Positions 11,895 through 63,686 of a stretch of 64,000 nucleotides of DNA are shown in pieces. The position numbers were made by a program, and so were the translations under genes. The notes beneath the pieces are model-generated. The model ran no database searches, was not told the DNA's origin, and was given only the letters and a program-made list of their open reading frames with translations. Origin of the DNA: Amphiscolops sp. MND2022 (Eukaryota); contig OZ076409.1 of the NCBI GenBank assembly GCA_964187785.1, positions 33,420,001 to 33,484,000 on the forward strand, written 5' to 3'. The stretch's first letter is position 1. Each line of letters starts with the position of its first letter.

Positions 11895-12136
11895 TTTTGG
11901 TGCCGCGACCCGGGAACGGTTGCGTATTTGTTAACCATCTTTGATTTCTTCTGATCTTCAATTCTCAGCTTTGGTAGATTTGCAGATACCCAACAGGTTT
12001 GCTCTTATTTTGAAGTAGAACAATTTTCTTATTCAACTGGACATTGCACTTACGTCACAGAGGACCTGATTCATTGTCCACCGGGTTGACCAAATTACTA
12101 CATAGCAGGCAATTTAGCAGAAGTTACTGAAACGAG

Positions 12137-15330: not shown

Positions 15331-18300
15331 GTGAAAGTGGACGGGCGATCCAGATCAGATGTTAAAGCACTTGAAACTTTGGAAAAGACAACGCAGTGTG
15401 AAAATGACAGGTACACCGTGGGAATGTTGTGGAATTCTTCTCGTTCCAGTCTGCCAAACAATTATCGAAGTGCTGTTAAGCAGTTCTTGTCACTCGAAAA
15501 CCGACTGGCCAAGAACCCAGAACTCAAAGGTGCGTATTCAGATACAATCAAGACGGATAAAGATTCGGGTTATATTCGGATACTTGAACCAACCGAGCTT
15601 CAAGAGACTAGAAAAGAACCTCAGTGGCATTTACCCCATCACCCTGTTATCAACCCGAACAAACCTGGAAAAGTGAGGCGCGTCTGTAATGCGGCTAGCG
15701 AATTCGAAGGACATTCATTGAACAAAAGTCTCTTCATTGGTCCAGATTTATTACAGAATCTTGTGGGGATCATCTTCCGGTTCCGGGAGAAGCCGTTTGG
15801 CATGAGCGCAGACATTGAAGCAATGTTCTTGCAGGTACAAGTCCCTCCAGAAGATGCAAAATGTCTTCGTTTTGTTTGGCGAGAAAATCAATCAGACGAA
15901 ATATCCACGTATGAATACACTCGGCTTATATTTGGAGCCAAAGACTCGCCAACATGTGCAAATTATGCTTTACAACGTACAGCCACAGACAATGGGGAAG
16001 AATTCCCAGTCGCTTCTAGAATTGTGAAGCGAAATTTCTATATGGACGACTTCTTGAATTCTGCGGAAAATATCCAGGAAGCTGAATCTGTGAAACAGAA
16101 CCTGATATCTCTCTTGCGGAAAGGCAGTTTCAAGCTTTCTAAATGGCAATCAAATGTGAAAGAATTGTGCGAGAAAGAGAGTGATGCGGAGAGTGTTACT
16201 ACTTTGGGATTGGAATGGAACCTTATCGCAGATGACCTCAAATTGTGCCGTGGGTTTGCTGGCAAAGAACATTCAGTTATCACCCACAGAGTAGTTCTAT
16301 CAGTCGCGTCGTCAATATTTGACCCATTGGGTTTAGCATCACCATTCACAATTAGAATTCGACTTATTTTACGACTTATTTGGCAGAAAGCTTTGAAATC
16401 TTGGGATGAAGAAATTCCGCAAGATGTCGCAAAACAATATCTTGATTAATTACAAGAAATTCCAGCCCTGAAGGAACTCTCAATAGACCGACATTATGGC
16501 TGGCATCGTGGCAGTAATGTACAATTACATGTGTTTGCCGATGCATCAGAAATGGGACTTTGTGTCGTCGCCTACTTGAGGTTCGAGATTGATGGTAAAG
16601 TCAAAGTTTCTTTCGTAATGGGAAAAACAAGAGTGGCTCCTATCAAAACTACTACAATTCCAAAACTGGACATCCAGGCAGGTCTTCATGCTTCACGGAT
16701 AAAGGTATCCATCATAGAAGAACACGATTTCACCATAAATCAAGTTTTCATGTGGAGTGATTCATCAACTGTGATACAATGGCTGAATGCATTTGAAAGG
16801 AAGCAGCTAATTTTTGTTGCTAATCGTTTTGGAGAAATTTTGGAAAACACCAAGCTGGGTGAATGGAATCATATCCCTGGCGCATAAAAGCCAGCAGATC
16901 TTGGCACCCGAGGGATGAGAGCCAATGAAATTGCGTCAAGCGTGTGCCTAAACGGGCCGGCGTGGCTGAGTGAGAACGAAGCTCACTGGCCAAAAGCTAT
17001 TGCTGCCTGCACTATTGTTGAGGACACTTCAGAAACGTCTCAAGTGGTAACTCTTTTGCCAAACAAGCCACTTGAGATACAATGGGAATGATTCAGTTCT
17101 TGGACTAAATTAATTCACACAATTTGCTACATATGGCGCTGGAGACGACGCAATCAAAATAGAGGAGTAATTTCATTGGATGAATATCACTATGCAGAGC
17201 AAATCACATTCAAATTGATTCAAAAGGAATCTTTTACGACTGAATATGATACCCTAGTCAATGAAAAGGAGTTATCTTCCAAATCAAACATTGCACAACT
17301 TTGCCCGTTTATCGACAATCAGGGGATTATGAGAGCACGTGGGCGTTTATCAAAAGCTGATTTCGAATTCGATACTAAACACACAATCCTTCTACCATCC
17401 AAACATCCTGCAACGCGACTCATGATGCTGAAATGTCATTTGAACAATTACCATCAAGGCGTGGAAAGCATGCAACATGAATTGCAACCGAAGTTTTGGA
17501 TTTTGGGCCTCAGAAACGCCTTGCGGAACATCAAAAGTCGCTGCGTCCCATGTAGGAAATACAGTGCCGTTGTCCAAGCTCCAATTATGGCTGACCTACC
17601 AAGAGAAAGGTTGGAGAAAGTTGATTTCCCTTTTATTTATGTTGGAGTTGATTATTTCGGACCCATAGAAGTGAAATACATGAGAAAGACATTGAAAAGG
17701 TGGGTGTGTGTATTTACCTGTCTGTCTACAAGGGCCACACACCTTGAAATGGTGTATTCGCTAGACACTGACTCCTGTCTGAGTGCAATTACACAATTTA
17801 TAGCTAGACGAGGTCATCCGTCGAGTATTTGGAGCGATAATGGCACAAACTTCGTTGGTGCGAACAACGAGCTGAAGCAGTTTGCATCAATGTGGCAAAA
17901 TACCGACTTCCAAGAAAAACTTCGTCAAAAGAAGATCATTTGGAAATTCAACCCCGCCGCAGCGCCACATTTTGGGGGTTCTTGGGAGCGAAGGGTGAAG
18001 GCATGCAAACAGGCCATATACCACGTTCTTAATGGTCAAAGGCTCACTGACGAGCTTTTAGCTACAATTCTTTGTCTCACTGAGCAACTGCTTAATTCCC
18101 GCCCACTCACGCCTAACTCTAATGCCCCTTCCGACCTCGAAGCTTCGACACCTCATCATTTTCTATTGGGCCGGTCGAGTATCGCTATTCCTTATTTGCC
18201 AGATGCGCAAAAGTACCAAAATCACAGGAAGATGTTCCTAGTGGCTCAAGCTCACATGGATAACATTTGGGCAAGATGGCTAAAAGAGTACCTTCCGGTG

Positions 18301-18520
18301 CATAATATTCGCCAGAAATGGTACAAGGAACGTCCGCAATTGAAAGAAAACGACCTGGTATGGATTATCGACCATCGTCAAAAAACGGGGTTTTTACCGC
18401 CTTAGAAGAGTCAAAAGGTGTCATTCTGGGAATGATGGCAATATTCGATCTTGTGACATCCTTACCCAATCTGGAGTTGTTTCTCGACCTACAGTTAAGT
18501 TGTCCCGTGTGTTGGACGAC
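15331..18520 (+). pseudogene. pol: BEL/Pao pol (RT, RNase H, integrase)
   Basis: RT with HLPHHPV, ADIEAMFLQV and FYMDD; RNase H FADAS/WSDS; integrase with zinc finger CVPC, GVDYFGP, WSDNGTNF, PHFGGSWER. Several stops. Confidence 0.95.
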
Positions 18521-18561
18521 GTTGGGTGTGTTCCTCCCCAAGAAAAACACAGGGCCGGCGA

Positions 18562-19241
18562 TGAAAAGGCCTGAAAACCAGTACAGAAAAAAGGACCTCA
18601 AATTGGGTGACTTTGCAGAGCCATAACTTCAACCCCTTTGAAAGAATCAACCCCAAAATAGCGGTGATCCCCCTTTTTTGAGCCAAACTACCGATCTAGC
18701 CCAAAAAACTGGAAATCAAAGCAACTTTTTTTCAACAAAAGTTTTTATGGGGGTTTTTGGACTTTTCGATCAATATATCACTTTTATGGCAAATAATGCC
18801 CTCCATTTCCTGTTTAACCCACTTTAGCCCTCATATTTATTTGTGATCATGTTGTGAGAACATATTTGAGTATTCGTAGCCAATATTAGCTTACTTAGGT
18901 AGACAGAAAGTGCCCCAGATAGTGTATTTACTGACCACGGAAGTGTAGTTACTTGTTGAATATCAACGGATATACTCTCATAATTTCATATTTACGCATA
19001 AATATTTGCTTCTATATTGTTTACTCTATTAGTCAATGTACCTGAGATGTTGTATAACCATATTAGAACGGAAAATTGACTTCTTGAAAGCAAGTTGTGA
19101 GAGTTTTTAGAAGTTGAAATATTCAGTTTTCATCACGGGTTCGTAAAGCTTTTGGGAACTTTACAACTTTTTGCACGTTAAATTTATCCCAGGGACAGGC
19201 CGACGGTTCGAACGCATTAGCTACTAGAATCAGCCTTTACA
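18562..19241 (+). repeat. BEL-1 3' LTR
   Basis: Direct repeat of 11222-11894, followed by TSD GTGCA. Confidence 0.95.
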
Positions 19242-19313: not shown

Positions 19314-20022
19314 TTTTTAGTCGGCGCTTCATGAAGTGAAACGCGACTATTATAGTGGCTTTTCTTAGTCGGCGCTTCATGAAGTGAAACGCGACTATTA
19401 TAGTGGCTTTTCTTTTTTTCAATCCACACGAACTGACCAAAATAGTTCTTAAAAGTTCTACAAAATATTATTGCACCAAATTGCACTATTTGGTCTAGCG
19501 AACTGAACCAAAACTGTTTTTCCTGTTCTCCCGCGTACCATACCATACCCGGGGAGACCAAAGGGTCCCCCCTTCCAATTTTTTTTCGGCACTGCGAGAC
19601 TTTTTGTTCCGGAAATTTTTTCCCCAAAGGGTCCCCCTTTCAATTTTGTTTGCTGTTTTGCGACAGAATGGATGTTGGAAAATCCCAAAGGGAAGTTTTT
19701 TTCGGCACTGTGAGAATTTTTCCGAAAAAGAAAATTTTTCCCCTTTTCAATTTTTTGATGTTTTCCGACAAAACCCCTTCAACTGCGACAAAAATGTTGA
19801 CAATTTCGGAAGTGTCCTCCATTCAGCGCGCCAGGGGCTCGCGCTAGCGGGCCCCGGTGCGCCACTCGGTCCATTTTTTGAGTATGTAATTTTTTCGAAA
19901 TTTTGTTTTCGTAAAATATTCGATTTTCGAGTACTGCAAAAGAGAATACTTGACACTCGGAAGTCTTTTTGCTATTTTTGAGCCTTAAATATGGCGCCGA
20001 CTTGGGCCGGTCCCGGCTTGTT
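19314..20022 (+). mobile_element. Helentron/DINE-1-like element, family A (well-preserved copy)
   Basis: Duplicated 5' TTTTAGTCGGCGCTTCATGAAG; 3' subTIR GGCGCCGACT, hairpin GCCGG-TC-CCGGC, then TTGTT; highly similar to 27891-28575 in reverse. Confidence 0.85.
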
Positions 20023-20898
20023 CAAGTCTATTGGGGGTTTCGGTATGCGGCCCTTCCCATCCCTCGGACACTTTTTAAGGTATCCCACTCACCGAGTTGA
20101 AATTGATACAACCTGACACCACCTATCTTTAGAAAAAAACAAGAGTCCATCTCGAGTTGAACCCTAAGTTAAATTTTTTTTTCATATTTTCTGGACAAAG
20201 GACATCTTTTTTTCAATGTTCCATTGAATTGTCAAGAATATGTATAAAAGTAACTGAAATTGAACTCTCTAAAAAGAATGAAGTTTAAAAAGGATATGTA
20301 CCGCAGCAGGTCTCGAGGGTGAGTACAAAAAACAGTATTACTCCCTCAGCGGCTCGTTACGGTCTCGTTAAGAACAAATAAAGCACATCACAGTTATACA
20401 ATGACACCAAACTATCAGTCCATCAGTCCTAATCATGATAATTGATTGAAATTTAACCTCATTGATTCTAACATCGTCAAACTCGTCAGCGTTTTCGTTT
20501 TCGAAGGCAGACTTAGTTGGAAATTGATACTCAGTTCTTAACTTTACAGCTTCGAACTTTGAAGTTGCATTGGTGCGCCGTAATTTTCGCTCATACCACT
20601 GGGCCCAAATATTCAAGCCGATATTATGACAGCGTGGTACTTCACTGCAAGTCTACAATTAGAAAACCATGTTTTCAACCATTTTTTCATAATTAGACTC
20701 AGATTGATTCGGACCAGAAGATATATTTGAAAAACATCAAAGCCACAGGAACAATTTGATATAAAATTTAGTGTCATAAATGATCACGGATATCGAACTA
20801 ATGTTTGAAAAAAAGACTATTTTACAACTGCCGCCAAAAACTTTGAGTATCGATTATTGGGACTTAAGAACGCCATGATCTACACTTAAAACGGTCGT

Positions 20899-27397: not shown

Positions 27398-27890
27398 TGT
27401 TTTTCCGATGCCATAAAATGCTCAGAAAATGTTTGTGTTTTGTGCTAGCGTTCATTCCGTTGTTTTGTAATTTTTATACACCTAAGCGCAGATAGCAAAT
27501 TCAACAGCGGATGCAAAATGGCTGCTAACAGCGCTTGGTTTAAGAAAACTTGACTTTTTTGTTTTGACAAACCTGAAAAAAACCCAAGTAAAAAAGCGTA
27601 GTTTGAACAATTTTGCAGTTTCTTTCGAACTTCGGGTGTTACTGCAAGTGTGAAGATCTAAAAAAGAGGTACAAATTTTTGGAAAGAGGATGAGAACGTC
27701 TTGAAAGAGAAAGTAATTGGCAGAGAAACCAGAAGTGAAACGACAACAACGAATAGTCGGACCCGTTTTACTTAGAGCGAAAGTCACAGCATGCTTCAAG
27801 TCCACCATCAGTTCTCCGCGTGGTTGAAATAATGGTACTGTAGTTTGCTTCAGAGTGATGGTATCGAGAATGGTACCAGTTTGGAAGTTG

Positions 27891-28575
27891 AACAAGCCGG
27901 GACCGCCCCAAGTCGGCGCCATATCCAAGGCTCAAAAATAGCAAAAAGACTTCCAAGTGTCAAGTATTCGTTTACAGTAGTCGAAAATCGAAAATTTTTC
28001 GAAATTTTTTTTTGAAAAAATTACATACTAAAAAAATGGACCGAGTGGCGCGCCGGGGCTCGCGGTAGCTAACGTGGCGCGCTAACGTCTCACAATGCCG
28101 AAAAACTGAAAGGGGGGACCCTTTGAGGTTTTTCAACATCCATTCTGTCGCAAAACATGAAAAAATTGAGGAAAAATTTTTTTTTTATTTTCGGGATAAA
28201 ATCTCACAATGCCGAAAAAAACTGAAAGGAGGAACCCTTTGGGATTTTCCAACATCCATTCTGTCGCAAAACATCAAAAAAATGCAGCAGGGAACCCTTT
28301 GAGGAAAAAAATTTCGAAAAAAAAATCCGAAAAAAACTGTCTCGCAGTGCCGAAAAAAATTGAAAGGGGGGACTCTTTGGTCTCGCCCGGTATGATATGT
28401 TACGCGGAAAAACAGGTAAAACCATTTTGGTCCAGTTCGCTAGGCCAAATGGTGCTATTTGACACCATAATATTTTGTAGAACTTTTAAGAACTATTTTG
28501 GTCAGTTCGTGTGGATAGAAAAAAAAAGAGTCACTATAATAGTCGCGTTTCACTTCATGAAGCGCCGACTAAAAA
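27891..28575 (-). mobile_element. Helentron/DINE-1-like element, family A
   Basis: Reverse complement of family A ends (AACAAGCCGGGACCGCCCAAGTCGGCGCC ... GAAGCGCCGACTAAAAA). Confidence 0.85.
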
Positions 28576-47032: not shown

Positions 47033-47169
47033 AAATTTTTTGTGGCGGATAAGTAAAAAAATTCAAAATCAAACAAAACAGCTATTCAGTATGCTTCTTT
47101 GAAAGAAGCATACTGAATAGCTGTTTTGTTTGATTTTGAATTTTTTTACTTATCCGCCACAAAAAATTT
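47033..47169. repeat. Perfect palindrome, 68-bp arms, 1-nt spacer
   Basis: 47033-47100 is the reverse complement of 47102-47169. Confidence 0.95.
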
Positions 47170-47399
47170 ACACCAAATGCACGCATGAAAAACGCCAAAA
47201 ATTGTGATTTTTCGTTTTTTGATTTTTTGGGGTTATATTGAGGCTTATTTCAAATTAAAACCAGCTTTTGTTTTTTCTTCAAAAAACCTACTGGCCATTG
47301 AATTCAAACCATGGAACGGGTCAAAGTGCTGATTCACAAAATTTTTCAAAAGATTAGGAAAATTGCGTTAAATATTTCAAAAATTGTCAAAAGTTTAAA

Positions 47400-47733
47400 A
47401 TCTCGAAATTTATTTGTCGCCAAAGGGTCCCCTTCAAGTTTTTTGATATTTTGCAGCAAACTGAAGTTTCAAAAAACCCAAAGAGTCTTCCTTTCAAAAT
47501 TTTAGGCACTATGACGCTGTTTCGAAATTCTCAATTTTCGTTTTTTCAAAAATTTTTCAAAAAGTTTTACGAATTTTTTAACATGTCTCCAAAGGGTTTC
47601 CTTCCAATTTTTTTGATATTTCGCAACAAACTGGATTTTGAAAATGCCAGAAGGGTCCCCTTTTAGAATTTTACAAACTTTGCGCTTTTTGAGCTTTAGA
47701 TATAGCGCCGAATTTAGACATTCCCGTCTTGTT
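47400..47733 (+). mobile_element. Family A element, 3' part
   Basis: AAAGGGTCCCC units and AGATATAGCGCCGAATTTAGACATTCCCGTCTTGTT end; start approximate. Confidence 0.6.
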
Positions 47734-49102: not shown

Positions 49103-50489
49103 TCACTGAATTTCTTTTTCAAATGAAACGTTATTGTTAAATTATTAAAGACAGTGTCCAAGACTGAAAGACAAAATTATTGAATTAATGGTAAAATGGA
49201 AGTACATATTAATAAATTTATATAACATTGAAACCCGTAACCTCTCCAACACTTCTTCATATATTCTGGATGCGCTATTTTATGTGATATTTCACCTATA
49301 AAGTGTCGTTTCAGTTTACTTTTATTAAATTCGATAGAAAATTTTCCCTTGAATAACATTAGCGGTAGGCTGCTCCACGGGGGTAAAACTCTCATGAAGA
49401 AGCTAATTTCATGAAAGCACTTTTTCCGTTGTCCGTGACTGCGTTTTTATCAGAGCAGTCGTTGTTTAATTTGAGCTCTTGAAAGCAGGTAGTAAGTTAT
49501 TCTGATTTTTCCAGAAGTAGGTGACTGCTTCGAGATCTAAAAAAATTCTGATCGGAAAGATATTGCGCTTCAATTTTAGATCAGTAGTGGATTAAAACTT
49601 TCCTCGGTTGAAACAAGCTTTTACACCCCAATTTAGTTGTTTCGCTAGGGATGTAATTAAAATTTGCAAAATTCCATTAGTTATTATTGCTGGATAATGT
49701 ATATGGCTAATTACAAGAGAGTTGAGTAGCAGTGGACATGTTTTATCTGGTAGAAACGATTTAATAGTAAAACGTTTTAATACCACATGCCATTCTCTTT
49801 AGCACATTTTTCACTTCATACTCATATGTCAAATTTTGATCCTAGTATATTCCAAAATATTTCACAAACGAAGAATGCTTTGTCAAATGATTTCTAACAC
49901 GGAGTATTAGGAGTTTTGTAGAATTGTAGTTTTATAGATCTTTTACAGAAAACAATGAAATCAGTTTTACTCTTGTTGAGGTTCAATCGATGCTTTCCAA
50001 AGTAGTCAACTAAGTTGGCAGCATTAGTTCCAAGTTGACTTATGGCAGTATTGAGACCTTCATTGGAGACAAATAGAAAGGTGTCATCAGCCCATTGAAC
50101 CAATTCACATGGTGTTTGGATTGCATTCTGCATACATTTAACAAATAGATTAAATAGAAGAGGACCCAGAACAGTACCTTGTGGAACACCCTGGTATAAA
50201 TCTATCCAATCAGAAGTTGTATTTTGGAGAACAACTTTTTGCGTTCTGTTACATGGGTAACTTTTTTAAATGAAGAAATAGCTACTTGATCGAACCCAAA
50301 TTTCTTGAACTTTTCCAAACGAAATTCATGAAAGATGGAATCGAAAGCTTTAGATAGATCGAGAGAAGCTGCAGCTAACATTTTGTTATTATCAGTATCA
50401 GATCTCATTTTTTCCGGAGCATACAAGAGAGCATCTGTTTTTCGAGTACTCTTGGCGTATGGCATCAGAAAAATTTCGTGGAGTAATTA

Positions 50490-50560
50490 GTCCACTTAGC
50501 ATAGTGGTTCAGTGTTTGCCTTCGAACCACATTGTGCGAGTTCGAATCCATGAATGGGCA
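50490..50560 (+). ncRNA. tRNA-like (Pol III type 2) cassette in BEL-2 5' LTR
   Basis: 71 nt; A-box TAGCATAGTGG, B-box GAGTTCGAATCC, partial acceptor stem GTCCACT/AATGGGC, CTTCGAA loop, downstream TTTTT. Confidence 0.6.
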
Positions 50561-53090
50561 TCTTTTTGTTTCTTTAACTTTGTTGTATCATTCACTTCGA
50601 TTGACCTCTAATTATTTGATCGTACTGTTGCTCATTTCTCATTTATAATATTTACCGATGCTCACTTCTTCATCCATCAAATGCTCAATAATGTAAACGC
50701 ATATAAACAACCTGCAGAAACCTTTTTGTTGCCCTCGGGTTGTAAGTGCCATTTATGTTTCCCAATACCCAGTCAACAACCAGTCGTCATACTTTCACTC
50801 TTCTTCTTTCATTTGTTTATCATACACACCGTCAATAAACGTTCTCAAATATAGATATCTTGCCTTGAGTCAAGACCCAAATCGCAATACTTTGAACTCT
50901 GTCTTTGAGTTCCTTCAAATTGCTTAGTTCGAACTCTTTCTTGAGTTTCCCCGTTGTAGCTTGAGAGCTACTCCGAAACATCGGTGACCTCGACGTGATT
51001 TCAACATCAGATGGTCCACGCAGTTCAGACGGCTCTGGTGGTGAGATGAAGTTGCCTCAGCTCAAGCGATCAAGAGGGGCTCATCGCAGCGTCTTCACTA
51101 GACGGGCAACAGCAATCCGGCAACCCGGTGGAGCGCACGAGGACTTTCAAGCCACATTGGAGTTCTTGATTGATCGTCGCAAGATGCTGACAGAGATGGA
51201 CTCTCAGCTTCAACAACTCATTGAAGACGAGTATGGGTTAGTAGCCGATGTGGGGGAAGCTGCTGACGTATTCATGGCAGCTGAAAGGGCAGTGAAGTGG
51301 TGTCAGGGCAAAATCAAGGAGACGCAGCCTCCAAGCACGAGCGTCGCAGTGGCTCCATCAAGTAGCAGTCTGACCATGAAGCTCCCCAAGTTGAACCTTC
51401 CTTCATGCAGCGTTGAATACACACAGTGGGTCTCTTTCTAGGACCAATTCACAAAAAACTGTTGGAATCGACGAACGAACAGGTGCAAGCACAAGAAGCT
51501 TTGAGGTTTCCCGTCAATCAATGGGAGGTAATACTAGTGTACTGGCTGCTGGAGAAACTAGATGCTGAATCAAGGAAGCAGTTTGAATCGGCTCATCCCG
51601 GCACAGATGTGTTATCATTCAAGTAGTTAACCACATTCATGGATAGACGAAGCCGCGCATTGGAAGCCAGTGGTGACCGGCCTGAGGTATCTACCCCAAG
51701 ACGACGCCCAAGAAGGTGCATCTCTCGCCTTATATGTGATGGTCAAAGTATATCAGATGATACACTTTGAAGCCGAGTTCAAAGCCTTCTCAAATGGTGA
51801 GTCAATCAACCCGGAGAGTTCAAAAGCATCCCCCTATCCATTCATGGACAATGGCGTCATCGGGGTTGGCGGCAGATTGGCCCACGGCTACTCAAGGACT
51901 GACGATCAGCGGTTCCCTTTACTGGTGTCACACCGAAGCAAACTCGCTACAATTGCACTCAACGATGCCCACAAACGAACCCTTCATGGTGGTCCTACAG
52001 TAACTGTGGCAGAGATGAGACGTCAAATCTGGGTCACTCAGGCAATAAGAAGGCGTCAGCGTGTGTCAAGAAGTGCGTCACGTGCTTCCGCTTCGATTCA
52101 AAGCCAACACAGCAGCTCATGGGTGACTTGCCTTCCAGTCGCATTGAGGTTCCCGACCATACCTTCTTTTGTATAGGCCTCGACTTCGCAGGACCTCCTA
52201 CATTCAAAAATGGAACTGAATGTGTCAAGGGTTACGTAGCTGTGTTTATATGTTTTGCTTCAGAGCAGTTCATCTAGAGTCATCATTGAAATCAGATGCG
52301 ATGGTGGCAGCCCTAAGACGATTCATTGCAAGACGAGGCATCCCCGGTCAAATTGTGTCCGACAATGCAACCAACTTCTTGGGTGCAAGGCGTGACCTCA
52401 ACGAATTGGAGAAAGTGGTTCGGGCAATGACACAATCATACCGCAGCAATGAATGCCTTTTCATTCCTCCTCGCTCACCCAACTTCGGTGGACTATGGGA
52501 AGCAGCGGTGAAGTCGATGAAGCACCATTTGCGTAGAGATTCCATTCTCAACTACGAGATAGCAACTATTCTTTGCCAAATAGAACAAGTATTGAACAAT
52601 CGTCCACTGATGGCTCTCACAAACAATCCAGATGACGCCTTTGCGATCAGTCCGTTGATGCTTGTCAATGGCAGCGAATTGGATGCTATTCCGCAACCCA
52701 GTTTGCCGAAGATGGATGCCCGAGGGCATCCAGTCAAACAATTTCGCAGTCTTCAACAGCTACTCTCTCAATTTTGGAAGAGATGGTCTTCTGAGTATGT
52801 TGCATCACTCCAACCTCGTAGCAAGTGGCGACAATAACGTGCAAATCTCTCAGTTCATCACAGACGATGGCATTCCACCACTGCAGTGAAATATCGGTCA
52901 ACTGATGCAACTGAAACTTGGTCACGACAGCTTAGCACGAGTGGCATTGGTGAGAACATTGCGCGGTGAGTTCACAAGGCCTGTCAGCAAGCTGAGACGT
53001 CTACCAGTTGAAGACAATGACCTCCACAATGCCCTCCACAACATTGAACGTCATGCACACAAGGAGAAGCAGCACGAGCGACAACGAAAC

Positions 53091-53177
53091 TGCGTGCTGT
53101 GGATTAGTGGCTAACGTTGACTCAACAGTGACCCATTAGATATCCGCCAGGTCGGGGGTTCGAGCCCTGCCCACGCC
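53091..53177 (+). ncRNA. tRNA-like cassette in BEL-2 3' UTR
   Basis: Acceptor-like stem GCGTG/CACGC, A-box GTGGATTAGTGG, T-arm GGGGTTCGAGCCC. Confidence 0.5.
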
Positions 53178-53393
53178 CCCACTCCTGCCTCAATGTGGCG
53201 AGTAGGTTCTATTTTCCTAGGGGAAATTAGATCTGGATTCTCAGATCTGGAGTCTTTTCTCACGGGGGTTGAAGGGGGGCGAGAGAGGAGGTTTAGTGTG
53301 TGAAGAAAAGAAAAGAAGCCAGCCATTATTTTGATTTTTTGCAGCCACACGCACCCTACTCAAATACCCAAAGTATAACCAATTCCCTTATGG

Positions 53394-53465
53394 ATGATGA
53401 TGGTGCAGTGGTAAACTCAATAATCCCTCATCAGAAGGTCTAGAGTTCGAATCTCCAAAACACAA
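53394..53465 (+). ncRNA. Second tRNA-like cassette in BEL-2 3' UTR
   Basis: A-box TGGTGCAGTGG (53401-53411) and T-arm AGAGTTCGAATCT at tRNA-like spacing. Confidence 0.45.
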
Positions 53466-53652
53466 AAATTTATTTTGTCCTCTTCAACTCAAACTTATGA
53501 TATTTGCTACTTGTATTATTCACGGGTGCTAGCCATTCATAATATTTCAAACTGTATTAGCACGAGTGCTAACCATATGTTCAATAAAGCTGGTACCTCA
53601 TGGCCGGCGGAATGTTGGCGTATGACATCAGAAATATTTCGTGAAGTAATTA

Positions 53653-53723
53653 GTCAACTTAGCATAGTGGTTCAGTGTTTGCCTTCGAACCACACTGCGC
53701 GAGTTCGAATCCATGAATGCGCA
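53653..53723 (+). ncRNA. tRNA-like cassette in BEL-2 3' LTR
   Basis: Copy of 50490-50560 with the same A/B boxes and T-run. Confidence 0.6.
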
Positions 53724-54475
53724 TCTTTTTGTTTCTTTATCTTTGTTGTATCATTCACTTCAATTGGCCTCTAAATATTTGATCGTACTGTTGCTCATTT
53801 CTCATTTATAATATTTACCGATTGATACACACTTATTCATCGATCAAATGCTCAATAATGTAAACGCATATGAACAACCTGCAAAACCTTTTTGTTGCCC
53901 TCGGGCTGTAAGTGCCAATTATGTTTCCCAATAACCAGTCAACAACCAGTCTTCATACTTTCACTCTTCTTCTTTCATTTGTTTGTCATACACACCGTCA
54001 ATAAACGTTCTCAAATATAGATATATCGCCTTGAGTCAAGACCCAAATCACAATAGTTTGAACTCTATCTTTGAGTTCCTTCAATTTTCTCAGTTGGAAC
54101 TCTTTCTTGAGTTTCCCCGTTGTAGCTTGAGGGCTACCCCGAAACAAGTACTTACTCTGGAACAAATGTTCATTTCGAAATGGTCTACGATTTGATTTCA
54201 AAGTACTTTTTCCAAAATTTTCGATAAGACTGGAGTTATTGATAAAGGTTTATAACTTTTGGGTTCTTCTGCGTACCATTTTTGTATATTGGTACTACAT
54301 GAGCTCTTTTAAGATGGTTTTGATTTTTTTCGTGTTCAAGAAATGCATTTATTAGGAATGCGTGTGGTTCAGCAATGATGTTTCGAGAGTCTTTGAGCGC
54401 CCATGCAGGTATATTAGATGGTCCAAGTGGTTTCTTTGTAATTAAGATCCTTACTAGTTTTTTTGCAGTCATACA

Positions 54476-54691
54476 GAGTTATCGGATGAAAACTGTAAGT
54501 TCCCGTTGTACACACGGCCCATCGCTACTGTTGATTGGACGGTCAAGCTAGATGCTGGGAAGACCTCTTTCGACACTTCGGCTGATTTGGCTAGAGGAAG
54601 TAAAGTCGTAACAAGGATTCCGTAGGGGAACCTGCGGAAGGATCAGTGTTGGACCAATTGGGTAGTTGGTCTCGATACAGCATTATGATCA
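54476..54691 (+). mobile_element. 216-bp insertion carrying an SSU rRNA 3' end, flanked by a 9-bp TSD
   Basis: AGTCATACA at 54467-54475 and 54692-54700. The LINE ORF2 peptide ..GPFHCMT | MTAKKLV.. rejoins when the insert is removed. Confidence 0.8.
54506..54645 (+). pseudogene. SSU (18S-type) rRNA 3'-terminal fragment (helices 44-45), divergent
   Basis: TTGTACACACGGCCCATCGCTAC ... AGAGGAAGTAAAGTCGTAACAAGGATTCCGTAGGGGAACCTGCGGAAGGATCA, matching the universal eukaryotic SSU 3' motifs with a few changes. Confidence 0.9.
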
Positions 54692-57610
54692 AGTCATACA
54701 ATGAAAAGGGCCTGACAAACCCGAGAGTTTAAAAAGCTCACTCCAATCTGATAGTTCATGTAATTGAACTCTCTCGGTAGCAACTGAGGATGGAACACTG
54801 ATTTCAGTGTGCTGAAAGTTCTGAAGGCTACCAACATGAGAGTTCATGGCCTCAGCTGAAAATGACTCGACACATTGCATTTGATCTTTAGTTTAGGAAT
54901 TACCTCTATCAAACCAATTGATCTTTAGCACACTTGTCATTACCCTTATGTTGAGTTTTTTGAAGCGGTGGGGTTTTGAACGATTCAGATAACAACTCAT
55001 CTGGTCTCCCGTCTTGAAACACAAAATGGCTTGTGATTATTGCTAGTTTCGGTGATACTCAACTCCCGAAAACAAAAGGGGTCTGTTTTACACCTGCAAA
55101 TTTTGGTAAATTTGGGATCGAAGAAATAATAAACGTTTCTTCTTTGAAAAATTTGCAGTGCCCTATAAAATCTCCCACTTTCGAAAATCTATATTTTGCT
55201 ACTTTTTTATCTGTAACAATATCACCAAAAACATACGGATTTTTTTGGATTTCTTTAATTGCGATCTAAATTAAGATTACGAATAAATTGTTGTATTTTT
55301 TCGTAGCTTAGGTCATTTGGATTCATTTTTTGCTCTATTTTTGTTATGAAGACGTTTGTTCTCAGTAGAAACCCACTTCTGATTATTGGTCAGATTGCTC
55401 TTATCATTGCGGATAAAGACTTTAGTTTTTGATATCGATTTACGCAAAGAACTTTCCTCGCTAATATTGAGAACATTCCCTCAGGACACGTTTGTCCCAA
55501 AAGCATCTCCAGTTACAATTAACAAATTAGTTTTGAAAAATTCTTTTTTATATGACTTTTCATTGTAGATTTCTTTCATGAAAACGTTCGACGAGGGTTG
55601 CTATTCGATGTTGCTTTTGCAGCAAGTCGCAAAATGATCAATTAGTTCATTAGTTGATGTACGGAAAGCGGTGTCAGATAAAAGTATTGAATAGGAATTA
55701 ATATTATAGTGATCCGTGATAATATAATCTATCAATGACCCCGATTTATTGCCTATTTTGGTTGGTTGATCAGTATTGATTGTTGTTAACTCAAATGGCA
55801 ATATAACAGTCTCGAGATCTTCCCTATCACTTTGGTTCAAATGATTTTTATTGTAATCACCCATCATTGTCAGTGGTTTATTTTCGACTATTGCATGATC
55901 TATATTTATGGATAATTCTTCAAGAAATTGATGGTAATATGCTCTTTTTGGATTGTAGCTACCATTAATCAATTGCTTCTGCTTATTGGAAGAATTATCA
56001 TTCAAAGTGCATTCGATCCGAAGGCTTTTCGAAGAGTTCTTTATTCAATGAGTTTAAATCGTTGCACGTTTTAGGATTAAGGCATGCAGGAATTATTAGC
56101 ATTTCTCCTCCACATTTTCTCTATTGCGTGCTTCTCTATCAGTCCGAAATGTTTTGAAATGAGTTGAGCTCATTTGCCATAAATTTTGGTCATCGTTTTT
56201 TCTTAACCAAGACTCTGGAAAACCAAAAATGTTGTTCGCACATAGTTCTTGATGAGATTTTCGAGTGTCGTTTTTTTAGGTAAGCTTTGTCCTTTTAGGT
56301 GGAAAAACCTCAAACTCCTATTATTCTTCTTGAACGAGGTTGTTAAATACTTGATGTTCATTTGAGGTCCTGGGTTTATTCAAAGTCCCCGCTGAAAAAA
56401 GTTTCCATTGAAAAAACATGTTCAAGGTGGTTCGCAATCTCAAAAAGAAGGAATTACTTGACTCTCTAATTGATGTTTGTTTCGAATTTTTCTAAGAGAG
56501 GAACGTTTGTTTTAATTAGTGGAGATTCTAAGGATGTCAAGAAATAATTATGCTTAAAATGCTTGACATGCACTTGGATTTTAGTTCGTACCTCATTGGG
56601 GATTGTTCGTTCATTGGTTGCACGGGCATTTCTTTTGATACTTATCGAATAATTTTTAGACCAAACATAATGAAAACCTTTGGGCTTTTTTCACATTTTT
56701 GGGTTAGGAATGCCCGTGCTCTGATTGAAGTTGAACATCATTCAATGCAGTTATCACACGTCGCTCATATAGTGGAATGTGGTCAGTGGCTGATGATGAT
56801 AGTACTGATATTGGTTCCTGTGTATATATTTCGGGTAATTTGTACTTTGTTTCCAACAACTTGAATTTGGACGATAGTAGGTAGTATTGATTCGGGGCAA
56901 TTTATTAGAATACCAGGTGATGTATTTCCTAGGAACGGAAAGCCCAGCTGAAAGTTGAAGTGAATGTCATCGAAGTATTGAGTTCCGGATTTTGAAGGAT
57001 TTTACTTGCTTGTTCAAATCGATTGTTTGAATATTTTCACTATCTCCATTAATGCTCATGTAAAAATAGTTCGACTCCTCAATTCTAATCTTAGTGATTT
57101 TGCTCCTCTCATAAAATTGCAGTGGTGGAGTCTCACACAGGAATACATTTTTCGGCTCGAATTTCTGGATGGCTTCTGTTACAAGAGGTTGGAAGTTTTC
57201 GAATAATTCTGAAATATTCTTCTCCCGATTTTTGAGAATTGTATTTGTTCCGTCTTGAATCGTCAAAGGTTGAAAATGCCTTTCCACCACGTAATCACGT
57301 TGAAATTCAAGTTTTTGACTACTAGTAGATGCCGAATAGGCATCAACTTGTACATCTCCGGGCAAGGATTTATTGGGCATTCGCTTTATGATACTGAACC
57401 AAAAATCAACTTTTCGATATTGCTGTTGACTGGCAGGGGTTCATTGGTATTACTAACTGTTTTGGTGACTGTTCGTTTCGTGCTGGTTTTTTGTCTTCAC
57501 TAGCTTCTTTATTCTCTGTAGAAAAATTGAAAGTTTTAACTAACAATTGATTGGTGTCGTCCATTCTTGCTAACCATTGGGTAAGTAGCATCTTCAGAAA
57601 ATCGTGGTCG

Positions 57611-58016
57611 TTTTTTATTTGGCGCTTTTCAAGAGAAAAGAGTCGACTATAGTCATGCTTTTCGTCAGTGTTTTTTAAGACCACCTGAACTGACCAAAAT
57701 AGTTCTACCAAAAGTTATACAAAATTTCAAAATTCACCTGTTGGCCCAGGGAACAGAACCAAAAAGTTTCCCGCATAACATACAATGCCGGACGAGACCA
57801 AAGGGTCCCCCCTTTCAGTTTTTTTCGGCATTGCGAGACTTTGTTTCTGGAAAAAAATTTTCCCCAAAGTGTCCCCCCTTTCAATTTTTTTCGGCGTTGA
57901 GACTTTTTTCAAAAAAACATTTTATTGCTGTAGAAGAGAATACTTTGAAACTTTGATGTCCTTTTGCTATTTTGAGCCTTGGATATGGCGCCGATTTGGG
58001 ACGGTTCCGGCTTGTT
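57611..58016 (+). mobile_element. Family A element nested in LINE ORF1
   Basis: 5' TTTTTTATTTGGCGC; AAGGGTCCCCCCTT units; 3' GGCGCCGATTTGGGACGGTTCCGGCTTGTT. Confidence 0.75.
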
Positions 58017-59979
58017 GCTTTTAAAGGTCGGTGTATATCGAATATGATTTTTTATTCAATTTCTCATAGGTTTCAAAAGACAACATTGTCTATAACTGTT
58101 GTGATGATTGTTCGTTTCAAAGCACAGGCACAATGTTTTCTTTTTTCATGAAGAACTTCAGATGCGACTGTGTATAAACAAATCATGCGCGATTCTTGCG
58201 CGACGTGAAAACAAGCACTCGAAAGAGGAGACAAAAATGAATAGGGCAAGGACGAGCAACCAGATTTATCCTATCGTGAGCAAGTTACTTTTAAACCTCA
58301 GCTTCCAGCTGACGTTTGCCTAACCATTTGGTTGCAATTACGATATTGTAAATTGCTTCGGGGAGATAGTTTTCGCAAAAAGCACAGTTTTTTTAAAGCA
58401 GAATTACTTGTTATACCTCTGCCCCGCTGAGTTGCTGCAATGAACTTTGTTTTTTTTCTTCTCGACTTATGACTGTTTAATGAAATCAACTTAATGTTTT
58501 TTGGATGTTTCTTCGGGCATGAGTGTCCATAAAAAACAACCACTAATCATTGAGCTTCTTGACTTTTAGCTACTTATGATTTATTTAGCTACTTATATAA
58601 AAGTATGGCGATGCATATGAAAAAAAAAACGGAAATGAAAAATGTCAAAAATATGAAAGATATGCTCAAGTCTCAAAACACAATCTCAGCTAGAATGGTT
58701 TGGGGCGGAAAATATCGAATTGTAGTAGTTTGTCTCAGGCAAAAAAACGGTTAGAAGTTCAGCTTCGGCTTTTTCCATCTCAGGACTCCGCAAGCGAACT
58801 TAGGCGAATGAGCAATTCTACCATTCTGCTGAAGAAGACATTTGACCCCGTGCAAAAATGTTCTTCACAAAAATAGTCTTTCACATCTTTCCTTTTTTCT
58901 GAAACAAAAAATTTTCAAAAGCTCTCCCCTTTTTTCCCTTTGGATGTCTAGTTAAAACTCTTCTGAGCACTCTTTTAAAAAAACAAAGAATTAAGAACTG
59001 AGAAATGAATCAAGTTTTTGGTCAACAGCACATTGCTGCTGCTGAAACTGTCAGAATCTGTTGTTTTTGAAACTAGAGCAACAAGCTGCGGCATCTTAGG
59101 TGCTTTGATCAAAATGTTTTCCATGGAGGTATTTTGTTATTTTTCTCTATTTTTGATATGCTTGCCCTCTTTGAGCTTCTGGCACATGTCGTAATCTTTT
59201 TACATGCTGAAAAACCGTAGATATCCCGAACGCCTCCTATTTTTACAAAAACGTTTTCGGTATCTTAGAGTATAACAAAAGCAAATTTAAAGTACGCTCT
59301 CAGTGGAAACTGGAGCGGAAAATTCTTTACCATCAACTTTGAATGCATATTGAAGAAATCTTCTTGTTATGAAAATTCGTAGCTTGTTCAACGTTTCTCA
59401 TTGTCAAAGCGAGAAATGTAAAACTAGGCATTTTCACAGTTCGTCAAAGGTTTCCCAAAAGATTTTTGAATTTTTGTTCCAATAAAAAGAAATTTGTCAG
59501 ACCTTTGTCTTAATTTTCATCACAGGGTATTGGATCAAAGCGTCCATGGTTTCAAAGAAACCTGACAGTCTTTGAAAAAATTAATGCCTGAATTTTTCAT
59601 CCCCAAGTCTTACATAATTGTCCCTTCATAAAAGTCTCAAGCATGTTCCCGTATTTTAAAAATATAATGAATTATTTCAAGGCTTCAAAAACTAAATAGA
59701 ACGTGGGACAAATTAATCTTTTGGTTCCACGTACACTTCAGAACAAGCGTCTTCTGAGGAGACATTTTTTTGATATCGAGGTCTTTTCATCGTACTTCTA
59801 AACTTTTTCTGAAAAATTTTCTTGAACATTGATGGAAATGTTCTGAATGTTCACAGAAGTTACTATCATTTGTCTAGTTTTCATTTAATTTAACAGAAAG
59901 AACATTCAAATTAAATGTACACGATCGAATTTACAGTTCGATAGCCAAGTTTTCAACACCATATGGTGATTTTCAACAC

Positions 59980-60143: not shown

Positions 60144-61193
60144 CCTCGAATTGAACTGAAATGAATTGTTTGGATGGCATAAAACACTCCTGTCCAAATT
60201 GATTGGAAAACATTTTCTGATTGTATTATTGCACTGAAATTCAATTACTCTGATGAGAAAAAATAGGTGGAATGCATCGTATTTATTAACCCTTGATGTA
60301 TTCAAAGTTCAATAACCTTATAATCTAATAAACTGGGCATATTTAGATATAATTAAATTACCATCATTTTTTTCTGCTGGGAAGACAACCAGTTTCCATA
60401 AACGGATGCATATCGCTCACACTGGTAGTTCAATAAATCTAAAACTCACAAAATTCTGATTTTCCAAACTTTTCCAGTCTTCAATTCCAGCACTTTTCCA
60501 AGATTTAATGACCGGAAAGAAAAATCACTATGCGTCCAAAATTAGCAAAGTGGATTATTATTGGTGCGCAATTCACTTGCCAACAACACAAGAAACAAAT
60601 TTGGCATTTCCTAAGTGACGTAATCTTTTCGATTTTGCCAGTTTTTATCTGCCTTGTCAGCACTGAGGGGCTCAAGAGTTCATTCGATTAGCTGAGTACA
60701 CGTGCAAGGACATATTATGCGCAAATATGGGCTCATAAATGTCACAAAATGCTCCACTAAATATGTCGAAATCTATTGGATTGCCAACACAAATTCCCAA
60801 AGTTTCCTGATTTATTGTACTTGCTATAAATTTAGAAAATTGAAAAATTAGATTAGATTAATCACCTTCACGTATCAAGTACATTTGAATTAATTCCTCT
60901 CCTATCTGATTTTCTATGACATTTCAAATGACAGTCCAGTCGCCATATATGGTATTTTATTTGTCTCGTTGAACAAATTCAAGGTACTCAAAAAATTACT
61001 ATTCCTGCAACGTTTTTCGTGTTGACTTGCCTGACAATATAATCAATTTTCAGATTAAAAAATCCATTAATTTCGTGGTTTACACCACGTAACAACGCAC
61101 AGACAGACTGACAACAAAAGGTTGAAAAATTGGCAGCAAATCTTGGTTCGGCCAAGTTGTTCACATGTGAATAATTTTTATAAGTTTTAACCT

Positions 61194-62241
61194 CCCGGGT
61201 CGACCCTCCATGGATATCTTAGTAAGATCTTGGCAAGATCTTGCCAAGATCTTGGAAAATTCTTAGCTAAGATCGTGACAAGATATTGCCAAGAATTGCA
61301 AGATGCCATGGTAAGATCTTATCAAGAGAGCCATGTTCCCAAGAAAAATCTTACTAAGAAGCCCAATATGGCAAGAAAAATCTAACTAAGAAGTCGAATA
61401 TGGCAAGAAAAAAATTGCTACGAACTGCTCGATATCGAGAGAAAGTAAAATCAGAAAACCATTAAATTAAGAGTTATGCAAAAATAATCTAGATATCACT
61501 CAAAACAAAATTACTGAATGATTTTTACAACCATTTCGATCTCGATTTTTTTTTTCAATTGCAAAACTGTTGCCAACAACGGCGTCAGATAAGCCTTGAG
61601 CTGAATCATTACCCAAAAATGAGCAATGAGCGCCGTTTCTAGCAGTAATAAGGCTGCTAAACAGGCTCAAAGAAAGCTGGAAATATGATTTTTACAAAAA
61701 TTTCAGGATTTTAAGGTCTTTCCTTTGTAACTTTCCGATAGTGGATCTGGACGTTTGAGAGCATATTTCTTCGTCTCTGGAATCGACAGGAATGATAAAT
61801 TACAAGTTTTGAAAAGCCCTTGAAATTACCTTTCATTTGGTACATTCGGGATTTTTCAGTCTTAAACAGGTGAGGAATTATTAGGATTCTCGTCAGAATT
61901 TCTGAAGCCAGACTACGTTATCGTAATTTTTCACGCATTTTTGCATGCAAAATTTTTCCAGCAGGTTTAAGCATTTTGATTATGAAAACGAGTAGAAATA
62001 GTCGTTGTTGGGTGAAATGAGCCTTTAGATTGAGTCTCGGCTGCTTGTACCGAAGGTATAGTGTTTTTTAATAATCCTAAAATTTTGTCCATCGTGATAA
62101 GATACGATCTTGGAATAAGTATTATCTTAGTAAGATCTTAATAAGAATCTTGCCATGGGATCCATGGCTGCCAAGATGTACTAAGAATTTGGCAAGATCT
62201 TGCCAAGACAGCCAAGATGCTAGTAAGAGGGTCAACCCGGG
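61194..62241 (-). mobile_element. Non-autonomous TIR DNA transposon, CMC/EnSpm-like, copy 2
   Basis: Reverse complement of 481-1539; CCCGGG..CCCGGG ends; 2-bp TSD CT. Confidence 0.85.
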
Positions 62242-63686
62242 CTTTTTGCAACAACTTTAATCCTCCAGCCACCGAAAGTGCATTGGTGATTTCTATGCTG
62301 CATGGAACAGTTATTGGTAACTAAGACGACAAAACTGACAGCCATTGACTATCATTATAACGTGAGCAACAATAGGTTACGACCCTAATGAATTCATAAA
62401 CATTGCTGTTCATCGAGAAAAACGGCATCTGAAACCTCGAGTTATCGATCCATGGAGTCGCAACGAAAAGAGGCTCCATTTATATTGACGGTGATTCATT
62501 CTACTAACAGAAGTCGCCTAATTTAAAAACATTCAAGTTCTTCAGGGAAAGGTCATATTTAGTTCATATTTTAAATTCGGTTCATGTTTCACTTCATATA
62601 AAGGAAGAGTAAAAACACTATTAAGAATCATTCAACGAAAGAAATTCTCAACTTCGGACCAATTATTCCGCATTGAACTATGTTTTTCTGTAAGGTACAG
62701 CAGCTAGAGGCGTAGCTGAAGTTCCCTAAACTTCTCAAAAACGCAAGAAGAATAATTAACTAATCAGGAAAGGTTCACCAAAAAGCAAGGGATCTTACAA
62801 ATGTGACGAAATTACCAAATAGAAACAGCTTTACTTTGAGAGCGATATCGTTGGAGTCTTTTTGAAGAGACAAATATCGTCTCAAATAAAAAGTCAAATC
62901 TTTAAATCTGTGCAGCTTCTTCTTACTAGCGTTTATGTAACATTATACATTCGCATTTTGTTCAATGGAGGGCACTAAATTTAATTACAAAACATATGAA
63001 AGAATTCTTTTTCACCCTTTGTTAACCCATTGAGATAACTAATCTGTTTTCCTTGATGCATTTGGTGATTCATCGCTACTACAACTAAGCTACCAAACCA
63101 AAGCCACGTGATCAACGTCTGAAAGCTCATTGTTTTTCAATCAATAAAACATGAATAGTTAGTCAGAATTCGCCGCCAAATACCTAAAGTTTAAAGAAGT
63201 CAAAAGCCCTCTTTATACCATGGTGCCGCAAAAAGCTACAGAATTTACACAGCACCATACATTACCATGCCAAACTGGTATATTTGTGAATTGTTTGAAT
63301 CCACACAATAATGTTTGTATGTTTAACGGCTGCTTTTGCGGAATTCACGGAACTTTGTGGATTCCACAAAATAATTTTGGCCATTGCTTGGAATCCACAA
63401 AGCTAAAAGAAGCATTGCGTTGAATCCACAAAATGAAAACGTGGATTCCACCAAAGTAACTCTCCCATTCGCATAGTTGTTCGACAGAGTTTATTTTTCC
63501 TTTTAGAGTTGTTATAATCTCCTAAAAAACAGATAGTAAAGCCAGATACTAAAGCCAAGAAGATCTTATTTTGTCATTTGTCGAATTTAGCAATTTACTT
63601 TCATTAAAATGTGTGATGTTAATACCCGGTCTGGAGGTACATATCGTGTCTTGTGCATATGATATTTCACGGAGGCCAAAAAGATC

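Follow-up and report, generated by a model that had tools for sequence, protein, structure and literature searches.

Pol III promoters in LTR elements

Pol III promoters have so far been described in two kinds of LTR elements: short non-coding TRIMs, in which their presumed role is to drive the element itself, and a few vertebrate retroviruses, in which they produce small RNAs. In the BEL/Tas group, C. elegans Cer7 reportedly encodes, near its 3' end, a tRNA-like primer proposed to pair with the PBS; a literature search returned no confirmation of this. The closest known system is Helenus (TRIMp3; Kojima 2024, PMC10886601), in whose LTRs tRNA-like A- and B-boxes have already been described; the earlier note on the present DNA omitted it. 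In the same account, autonomous partners are expected to rely on Pol II and to lack LTRs of this kind, and the word “BEL” does not occur in its main text. A literature search for earlier reports of the trait, in BEL or in autonomous elements, returned PMC10886601 as the only relevant paper; subscription papers and Repbase lay outside its scope, so absence from print is not implied. In chromatin, tDNAs are described as barriers and enhancer blockers (10.1101/412247).

The BEL/Pao copy at 50450-54146

The window, i.e. the whole 64-kb stretch of DNA analysed, contains at 50450-54146 a dead, internally deleted copy from a BEL/Pao lineage, spanning 3697 bp with gag-pol relics. All its features lie on the forward strand. 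It is framed by a 5-bp TSD (AGTAC, 50445-50449 and 54147-54151) and comprises a 5' LTR of 531 nt (50450-50980), a PBS (50981-50999) that we take to be of the tRNA-Trp type, a gag relic (51010-51674), a pol relic (51709-53048), a PPT (53601-53612) and a 3' LTR of 534 nt (53613-54146). The gag relic matches the relative P0016 (1689 aa) over its residues 2-144 and 224-297. The pol relic, which holds the end of the RNase H region, the integrase and DUF5641, is interrupted by frameshifts and stops; deletion has removed the protease, the RT and the greater part of RNase H from this copy. The LTRs are 93% alike, with 33 substitutions over 530 aligned columns.

The LTR lengths fall within the 0.2-1.2 kb of BEL/Pao elements, which likewise have a PPT and a TSD, and the gag-pol is of the BEL type: the gag and integrase/DUF5641 relics are 63-78% identical to P0016, which, like P0145, harbors DUF1759, Asp protease, Peptidase_A17, Integrase_H2C2 and DUF5641 domains. 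Pol II signals are still present in the LTR. In the 5' LTR, TATA-like motifs are found at 50644 (TATAA) and 50702 (TATAAA), the latter altered in the 3' LTR, and a poly(A) motif (AATAAA) at 50834.

Three A-box/B-box cassettes

Both strands of the window were scanned for an A-box (TRGCNNAGYGG, up to two mismatches) located 38-70 nt before a B-box (GTTCRANYC), both patterns being generic motifs. Four pairs were found in the 64 kb, all four inside the element and on its forward strand, with A-boxes starting at 50497, 53100, 53401 and 53660 (0, 1, 1 and 0 mismatches, respectively). The three pairs of the UTR and 3' LTR (53040-54146) were reached in none of 2000 shuffles of that segment, and the four pairs in none of 500 shuffles of the element and none of 40 of the whole window.

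These four sites, the number given in the earlier note, represent three distinct units that have little in common except the boxes. U1 is present once per LTR and was duplicated with it. The 5' copy, U1a (50490-50567; A-box 50497-50507, B-box 50540-50548, T5 50563-50567), starts 40 nt inside the LTR, in its 5' portion (probably U3), and not at its first base as had been claimed; its counterpart U1b occupies 53653-53730 (A-box 53660-53670, B-box 53703-53711, T5 53726-53730). The two further, different units reported after pol (53091-53177 and 53394-53465) were found at these places. U2 (53092-53215) directly follows pol, with its A-box at 53100-53110, its B-box at 53158-53166 and a first T4 at 53212; it can form a 5-bp terminal stem and a helix pairing 53104-53110 with 53133-53139. 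A spacer (53216-53393) containing a purine-rich tract and a T6 at 53335 leads to the third cassette, U3 (53394-53476; A-box 53401-53411, B-box 53445-53453, T4 53473). A run of four or five Ts thus follows every unit, its distance from the start of the A-box being 66 nt in U1, 112 nt in U2 and 72 nt in U3. No further copy of any unit occurs elsewhere in the 64-kb window, and the second BEL element of the window contains no A/B pair.

The runs of Ts bear on the possibility that Pol III produces the genomic RNA from U1, as in the Cassandra/Helenus model, or that a cassette RNA primes reverse transcription. The presence of U1 in both LTRs, like in Helenus, is in line with it. An element-length Pol III transcript, the Helenus trait, is opposed by the sequence: a T5 lies right after U1, 14 nt past its B-box, the sense strand carries 14 runs of at least four Ts, and the family is coding and kilobases long. 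It is unlikely that Pol III drives the genomic RNA, since terminators follow the units and the TATA-like and poly(A) signals remain. Self-priming was rejected: the longest pairing between a unit and the PBS is 5-7 nt, G-U pairs allowed, and no cassette holds a PBS complement, in agreement with the earlier view that self-priming is not evident. Taken together, this possibility appears highly improbable.

Promoter cassettes rather than tRNAs

The term “tRNA-like”, used in the earlier note, holds for the boxes and their spacing and fails for the cloverleaf. ARAGORN at default settings reports no tRNA gene. At an 80% threshold it calls U1a and U2, two of 40 calls and hence background level, and U3 stays uncalled even at 60%. 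The Rfam tRNA model does not match at E≤10, whether the three units are scanned singly or as the segment 53060-53760; matches of the units to mir-23, Yar_3, CRISPR-DR55 and snoRNAs, far under the gathering score, were attributed to chance. The U1 acceptor stem retains 6/7 pairs in the 5' LTR and 4/7 in the 3' LTR. Its T-stem is broken in both (1/5 pairs), and the pairing is not regained in the relatives P0239 and P0240. A CCA at 53175-53177, the position of a mature tRNA end, was discounted: it is embedded in a run of Cs, and relative P0182 does not clearly show it. Because neither program finds a tRNA and the U1 T-stem is broken, U1-U3 are, as far as sequence can tell, promoter cassettes and not tRNAs. 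The tRNA mimicry, processing signal and primer roles suggested earlier find neither a cloverleaf nor PBS pairing to build on.

The folds are weak. Those of the units are no better than those of shuffled sequences (z -1.22 to +0.89), and stable pre-miRNA stem-loops were not found among them. The stretch between U2 and U3, described as hairpin-rich, does not deserve the name: its folding is no better than that of shuffles (z +0.46 and +1.51), and its centroid fold shows a single 7-bp hairpin (53229-53248). Relatives give mixed support, as two both-sided changes in P0182 preserve the pairing of the U2 helix (3.8% of random trials, simulated after the data had been inspected) and one pair of the U1 hairpin is newly broken in P0240. 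Given the weak folds and this broken pair, no pre-miRNA-like product is evident.

These results also bear on the idea that the units are structured 3' UTR elements of the genomic RNA, serving packaging, RT binding or tRNA-like processing, with boxes that are mere left-overs of tRNA loops. All three units lie, in sense orientation, within the 3'-terminal part of the genomic RNA, and the paired changes of the U2 helix would fit. The U1 T-stem, unrestored in the relatives, and the U3 cassette that escapes ARAGORN do not; moreover, tRNA-like cleavage would cut the genome and the T-runs would be superfluous. This makes such a role very unlikely.

Cassettes in related copies

The relatives are known here as degenerate read-through or spurious-ORF peptides, found by similarity to the window and mutually related. 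Peptides from other copies cover all three units. The region of the U2 A-box is read through in six of 138 related proteins (P0018, P0145, P0017, P0158, P0182 and P0197); most of the others do not extend past the normal pol stop and give no information on this region. The identity of these six to the window integrase, measurable in five, is 71-89%. P0145 is an uninterrupted 1700-aa gag-pol in which, of the cassettes, the U2 A-box alone is visible. In a non-gene frame over U3-PPT-U1, six of seven matches reach a cassette: U3 in P0236, P0241 and P0237, U1 in P0239, P0240 and P0242. The spacer is also found in P0237, P0184 and P0235. Cassettes or boxes are deleted in P0237, P0242, P0184, P0235, P0007, P0142 and P0238.

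Since other copies' peptides cover all three units, U1-U3 appear to belong to the element, in line with the earlier note, and to be features of its family and not private SINE insertions. Independent insertion of tRNA-derived SINEs was rejected on further grounds: only 6-nt chance repeats surround the units, without any TSD longer than 6 nt, and the units terminate in a T-run without a SINE body or tail.

Searches for the DNA of close relatives yielded none in 17 candidate stretches of viral contigs and 28 of genome contigs. Pattern scans gave 0, 3 and 7 matches, all ten attributable to chance and no longer than 26 nt, and a word-indexed protein search using the non-gene frame scored none of three candidates. 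JGI metagenomes provided 37 distant BEL loci (36-55% identity). ARAGORN found a tRNA in none of them, and their 359,691 bases contain three A/B pairs (up to two mismatches), a cassette position being shown for none. In the sample formed by these loci and the second BEL element of the window, the trait is thus not shared by BEL elements at large.

The boxes are recognizable in the relatives: 13 of 16 box read-outs fit the pattern without mismatch and three with one, as does that of P0145, counted separately; the background fit is 0.13-0.15% of sites in polyproteins. The comparison of boxes with their flanks, which the earlier note had put forward as a check, did not go in favor of the boxes: in a pooled tally that omits P0145, P0007, P0184 and P0235, whose tails the aligner left unplaced, 16 of 66 box codons are changed versus 236 of 749 in other non-coding DNA (p=0.27), i.e. 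the boxes are not significantly better kept. Between the two LTRs, 0/22 box positions are changed versus about 1.4 expected, too few to be informative. A separate observation is that changes in the U2 A-box stay within the pattern more often than random change: the A-boxes of P0158, P0018 and P0182 differ from the window by at least 1, 2 and 5 changes and fit fully, which random changes achieve in 3.9, 1.7 and 2.2% of trials, in simulations chosen after inspection of the data. The U1 B-box of P0239 requires two changes from the window and still fits.

The absence of a significant pooled difference is what would be expected if the units were neutral passengers, i.e. pieces of tRNAs or heads of SINEs that an ancestor acquired in a single capture and that have since been passed on free of selection. 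In several copies cassettes are deleted, capture during reverse transcription would by itself give the sense orientation, and Repbase LTRs with partial tRNA similarity are “not a few” (PMC10886601, section 3.1). On the other hand, both boxes and the T-run are retained in three separate units whose tRNA stems are lost, the relatives vary at free positions of the A-box, and the hallmarks of a SINE, as well as additional unit copies in the window, are missing. Neutral inheritance is thus unlikely, without being negligible.

Proposed element-borne Pol III mini-genes

Pol III transcription and TFIIIC-based insulation, both suggested in the earlier note, remain the leading readings. The best of these, which we hold tentatively, is that the cassettes are element-borne Pol III mini-genes making RNAs of ~75-125 nt. 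As in Pol III miRNA cassettes, A-box/B-box/terminator units are clustered in a Pol II-type retroelement. The genome of this BEL/Pao lineage would harbor three different type-2 (tRNA-type) mini-genes, clustered within 640 nt at its 3' end: two follow pol, and the third belongs to the LTR and is duplicated by reverse transcription. tRNA or SINE-head sequences may have been captured through template switching, which would also explain their sense orientation; the cloverleaf would then have decayed, with boxes and terminators being retained. Once the DNA is integrated, TFIIIC and Pol III would produce three separate short RNAs of ~75, 125 and 80 nt, while the genomic RNA would still be made by Pol II from the LTR. 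By analogy with the Pol III cassettes of foamy viruses and BLV, the most likely use of such abundant RNAs would be to counter silencing by the host, either as decoys or as precursors of small RNAs; a likely additional benefit would be open chromatin around the active cassettes.

The cassettes might instead act in cis. TFIIIC/TFIIIB, bound to the 3' cluster and to the outer margin of the 5' LTR, would bracket gag-pol and form heterochromatin barriers or nucleosome-free sites, any RNA being a by-product. U1a precedes the TATA-like motifs by ~140-200 nt, the 3' end is closed off by three units, the folds are weak although the boxes are kept, and tDNAs have a barrier and enhancer-blocking role (10.1101/412247). 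However, the same source reports that tDNAs adjoining a Pol II promoter can repress it, and the units differ from one another in sequence, which, like the terminal stems and the compensatory changes of U2, hints that the RNA matters. Such an action in cis is rather unlikely, if somewhat less so than neutral inheritance.

On the mini-gene reading, the lineage may, like foamy viruses, produce small RNAs of its own. Three cassettes with terminators in a coding BEL lineage would bring the retroviral small-RNA pattern to a retrotransposon, counter to the published expectation that such LTRs are missing from autonomous elements. Such a lineage would also provide a compact test of Pol III RNAs or TFIIIC barriers as means by which transposons resist silencing, and an alternative origin for TRIMp3, by deletion from a coding ancestor. 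For annotation, such units are a source of false tRNA or SINE calls.

Comparison with known systems

Like Helenus, the element carries tRNA-derived A- and B-boxes in both LTRs, retained after the tRNA function was lost, and a canonical PBS and PPT with a unit devoid of PBS complementarity. Whereas Helenus is described as non-coding and 311-1263 bp long (PMC10886601), the present copy, a relic of 3.7 kb, comes from a coding BEL family. Helenus is tied to Gypsy (in animals, with a 4-bp TSD) or Copia; here, the proteins are of the BEL type and the TSD is 5 bp. Membership in Helenus was rejected: the LTR boxes are there, but not the short non-coding TRIM, the Gypsy-type PBS partner or the 4-bp TSD. 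Each Helenus LTR has a single unit, regarded as the driver of the element RNA, as compared to three different units here, two of them outside the LTR and each with its own T-run. Cassandra and Ajax also possess a Pol III promoter within the LTR, although of the 5S-derived type 1 and in short non-coding TRIMs, the Cassandra element RNA being made by Pol III (PMC10886601).

With Belpaoviridae the element shares LTRs, PBS, PPT and a gag-pol with BEL-type domains (PMC8742986). The family profile lists no Pol III units, as against three here, and gives an 18-nt PBS with tRNA-Arg or tRNA-Gly primers (PMC8742986), as against the presumed Trp type. The units also set the element apart from Cer7 as reported: there are three, and none pairs with the PBS.

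The cassettes of foamy viruses and BLV are similar in that a coding Pol II retroelement holds an independent A-box/B-box/terminator cluster in its LTR/3' region (PMC3993851). They yield validated miRNAs from stem-loops (PMC3993851), whereas the present units have no significant hairpin; they also differ in their tRNA-like box spacing and in belonging to an env-less, invertebrate-type retrotransposon. There is also a bolder and more doubtful proposal: an autonomous BEL/Pao lineage would encode a set of three Pol III small RNAs, with new folds that arose from tRNA-type genes, and use them to blunt host RNA silencing. This would be a retrotransposon counterpart to the Pol III RNAs of viruses, and internal deletion of such coding elements might be one way in which Pol III-bearing TRIMs such as Helenus arise.

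The host element and its surroundings

The BEL/Pao copy at 50450-54146 is flanked by a 5-bp target-site duplication (AGTAC) and comprises a 5' LTR (50450-50980) and a 3' LTR (53613-54146), both on the plus strand, a PBS from 50981 and a PPT at 53601-53612. The LTRs differ by 33 substitutions over 530 columns; with 16 transitions against 17 transversions, the transition bias is unusually low. The interior is a gag-pol relic matching residues 2-144, 224-297 and 1224-1673 of a related 1689-residue protein (P0016) at 63-78%, and by comparison with this protein the protease, the RT and most of the RNase H are absent. BEL-type Pfam domains are present in the best protein matches; BEL elements are metazoan (PMC8742986), and the host organism is eukaryotic. 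The element is a dead, internally deleted copy. It is surrounded by a decayed reverse-transcriptase gene on the opposite strand. This interrupted gene (minus strand, 49894-50449 and from 54152 on) is LINE-like by look; both its left-hand frames match RVT_1, and neither of the two right-hand frames tested does. A decayed 128-nt piece of a eukaryotic 18S rRNA 3' end (54513-54640; 54.1 bits, E 9e-13) lies 370 nt downstream of the element.

Other features of the window include a second, longer BEL element (11221-19241; LTRs 96% alike, 5-bp TSD), with a different PBS and a protein about 30% identical. The minus strand of its LTRs bears a motif resembling a B-box (11866, 19213); no A-box is within range. 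An inverted repeat with perfect 68-bp arms 1 nt apart is found at 47033-47169, an inverted pair (89%) at 480-1544 and 61189-62242, and a dispersed repeat family, 70-90% alike and in both orientations, at 1-400, 2157-2521, 7717-7831, 19352-20025, 27888-28575, 47375-47733 and 57601-58038.

Promoter boxes and tRNA identity

The entire 64 kb was scanned for a generic A-box pattern 38-70 nt ahead of a B-box pattern. Only four pairs were found, all inside the element and in sense (plus strand): U1a (A-box 50497, B-box 50540), U2 (53100, 53158), the U3 cassette (53401, 53445) and U1b (53660, 53703). Shuffled sequences never attained the observed counts (0/2000 for UTR plus LTR, 0/500 for the element, 0/40 for the window), and the cassettes described in the earlier note do exist. 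The first run of at least four Ts follows the A-box start by 66 (U1a), 112 (U2), 72 (U3 cassette) and 66 nt (U1b). Apart from the boxes, U1, U2 and the U3 cassette have little in common. The cassettes are real as promoter boxes, and the feature is real, non-random and heritable.

The same note called the units tRNA-like, a description that holds for boxes and spacing and fails for tRNA identity. ARAGORN at default settings finds no tRNA gene, and at an 80% threshold it calls U1a and U2 among 40 background-level calls; no unit scanned matches the Rfam tRNA model at E<=10. The cassettes are not tRNAs. The U1 acceptor stem forms 6/7 pairs in the 5' LTR and 4/7 in the 3' LTR, the T-stem 1/5. Compared with their shuffles, the units show no clear gain in folding (z -1.22 to +0.89), and the supposedly hairpin-rich spacer between U2 and the U3 cassette shows none either (z +0.46 and +1.51). 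That the cassettes act as elements within the genomic RNA is highly unlikely.

Presence in other copies

Because gene-calling software reads through mutated stops and into non-coding frames, the resulting database peptides report the DNA of other copies. Six of 138 related proteins with inspected ends read into the U2 A-box, most others stopping at or before the normal stop. Three different frames are used (P0018, P0145 and P0158; P0017 and P0197; P0182), and P0182 additionally spans the U2 B-box, up to about 53220. P0145 is an uninterrupted 1700-residue gag-pol with 75% identity to the window integrase; its tail over the U2 A-box shares 6/7 residues with that of P0018, and its box fits the pattern with one mismatch. 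The database labels it a cyanobacterial MAG protein, but it most probably stems from animal DNA that ended up in the MAG bin. When a non-gene frame across the U3 cassette, PPT and U1 served as phmmer query, seven of 1.84 billion proteins matched: P0236 and P0241 cover both U3-cassette boxes and P0237 the A-box, P0239 and P0240 cover both U1 boxes and P0242 the A-box, while P0238 reaches no cassette. P0240 represents a divergent LTR type (55% identity). A second LTR subfamily (P0142, P0144, P0236, P0237, P0238, P0240, P0241) has the same PPT and LTR start and a different sequence right after; P0240 suggests that U1 is retained in it.

Because these read-through and non-gene-frame peptides cover U1, U2 and the U3 cassette, all three are present in further copies and subfamilies and belong to the element family. 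Independent SINE insertion finds no support in these peptides or around the units, where neither TSD nor tail was found. One or more cassettes or boxes are deleted in several copies (P0007, P0142, P0184, P0235, P0237, P0238, P0242), which speaks against a fixed need, though dead copies may show such losses. No comparable arrangement was found in 37 distant BEL loci or in the second BEL element of the window, and the trait is apparently lineage-limited within BEL.

Conservation of the boxes

Evidence for selection on the boxes, as read from these sequences, is mixed. Among 16 box read-outs in relatives, 13 have no mismatch and three have one, against a background fit of 0.13-0.15% of sites in polyproteins; this high fit owes much to the relatedness of these copies to the window. 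More telling are U2 A-boxes that have changed and still fit the full pattern: they are at least one (P0158), two (P0018) and five (P0182) bases away from the window sequence, and random changes keep full fit in 3.9%, 1.7% and 2.2% of trials, respectively. The corresponding value for the P0239 U1 B-box is 4%; three other boxes are uninformative (25-41%). A seven-pair U2 helix (53104-53110/53133-53139) is preserved in P0182 by two both-sided changes (3.8% of random trials), a post hoc observation in one sequence with an adjoining indel, and the U1 hairpin has one additional broken pair in P0240. Better conservation of the boxes than of their flanks was not borne out: in a pooled codon test, which excludes four peptides whose tails the aligner did not place, 16/66 codons are changed in boxes versus 236/749 in other non-coding codons (p=0.27, not significant). 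That the cassettes are neutral captured relics is unlikely.

Possible roles of the cassettes

Downstream of U1 lie AATAAA (50834 and 54000) and TATA-like motifs, one shared by both LTRs (50644) and one in the 5' LTR (50702). U1 would therefore be located in the U3 region of the LTR. Pol III is unlikely to drive the genomic RNA, given these retained LTR signals, a T5 14 nt after the U1 B-box and 14 runs of at least four Ts on the sense strand. Self-priming, which the earlier note had found not evident, was rejected because no unit pairs with the PBS beyond 5-7 nt. Pol III transcription of the genome or self-priming is the least probable reading, and very improbable.

We tentatively favour independent Pol III mini-genes producing small RNAs that serve the element against silencing. 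The observed part of this account consists of the boxes, their spacing, the T-runs and the family-wide presence. U1, U2 and the U3 cassette would yield Pol III RNAs of about 75, 125 and 80 nt, which would act for the element against silencing, and the genomic RNA would carry each unit once, as a 640-nt 3' cluster. The capture route, transcription and any function are what we infer. A bolder version, in which the retrotransposon has a Pol III RNA repertoire of its own directed against silencing, is doubtful. The same boxes could act purely in cis as a TFIIIC barrier, which is somewhat unlikely as the whole explanation and compatible with the mini-gene reading.

Comparison with known systems

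C. elegans Cer7 reportedly encodes a tRNA-like primer and, if so, would be a partial precedent inside BEL. The ICTV profile of BEL/Pao does not mention Pol III units (PMC8742986), and 'tRNA' does not occur in the text of a BEL/Pao survey (PMC3118150). No description of multi-cassette BEL elements was found in the open literature, closed-access papers and Repbase lying beyond the reach of the search. According to the Helenus paper (PMC10886601), 'not a few' Repbase LTRs are similar to part of a tRNA. Helenus itself, a TRIM 311-1263 bp long that encodes no protein, is linked there to Gypsy or Copia; its autonomous partners are expected to rely on Pol II and to lack LTRs of this kind. Both Helenus and the present element have tRNA-like A/B boxes in their LTRs, but the latter falls outside Helenus by its size, coding and partner. 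The Pol III cassettes of foamy-virus LTRs and BLV (PMC3993851) have clear stem-loops, unlike the element's units; in layout, however, the element is closer to these viral cassettes than to Helenus.
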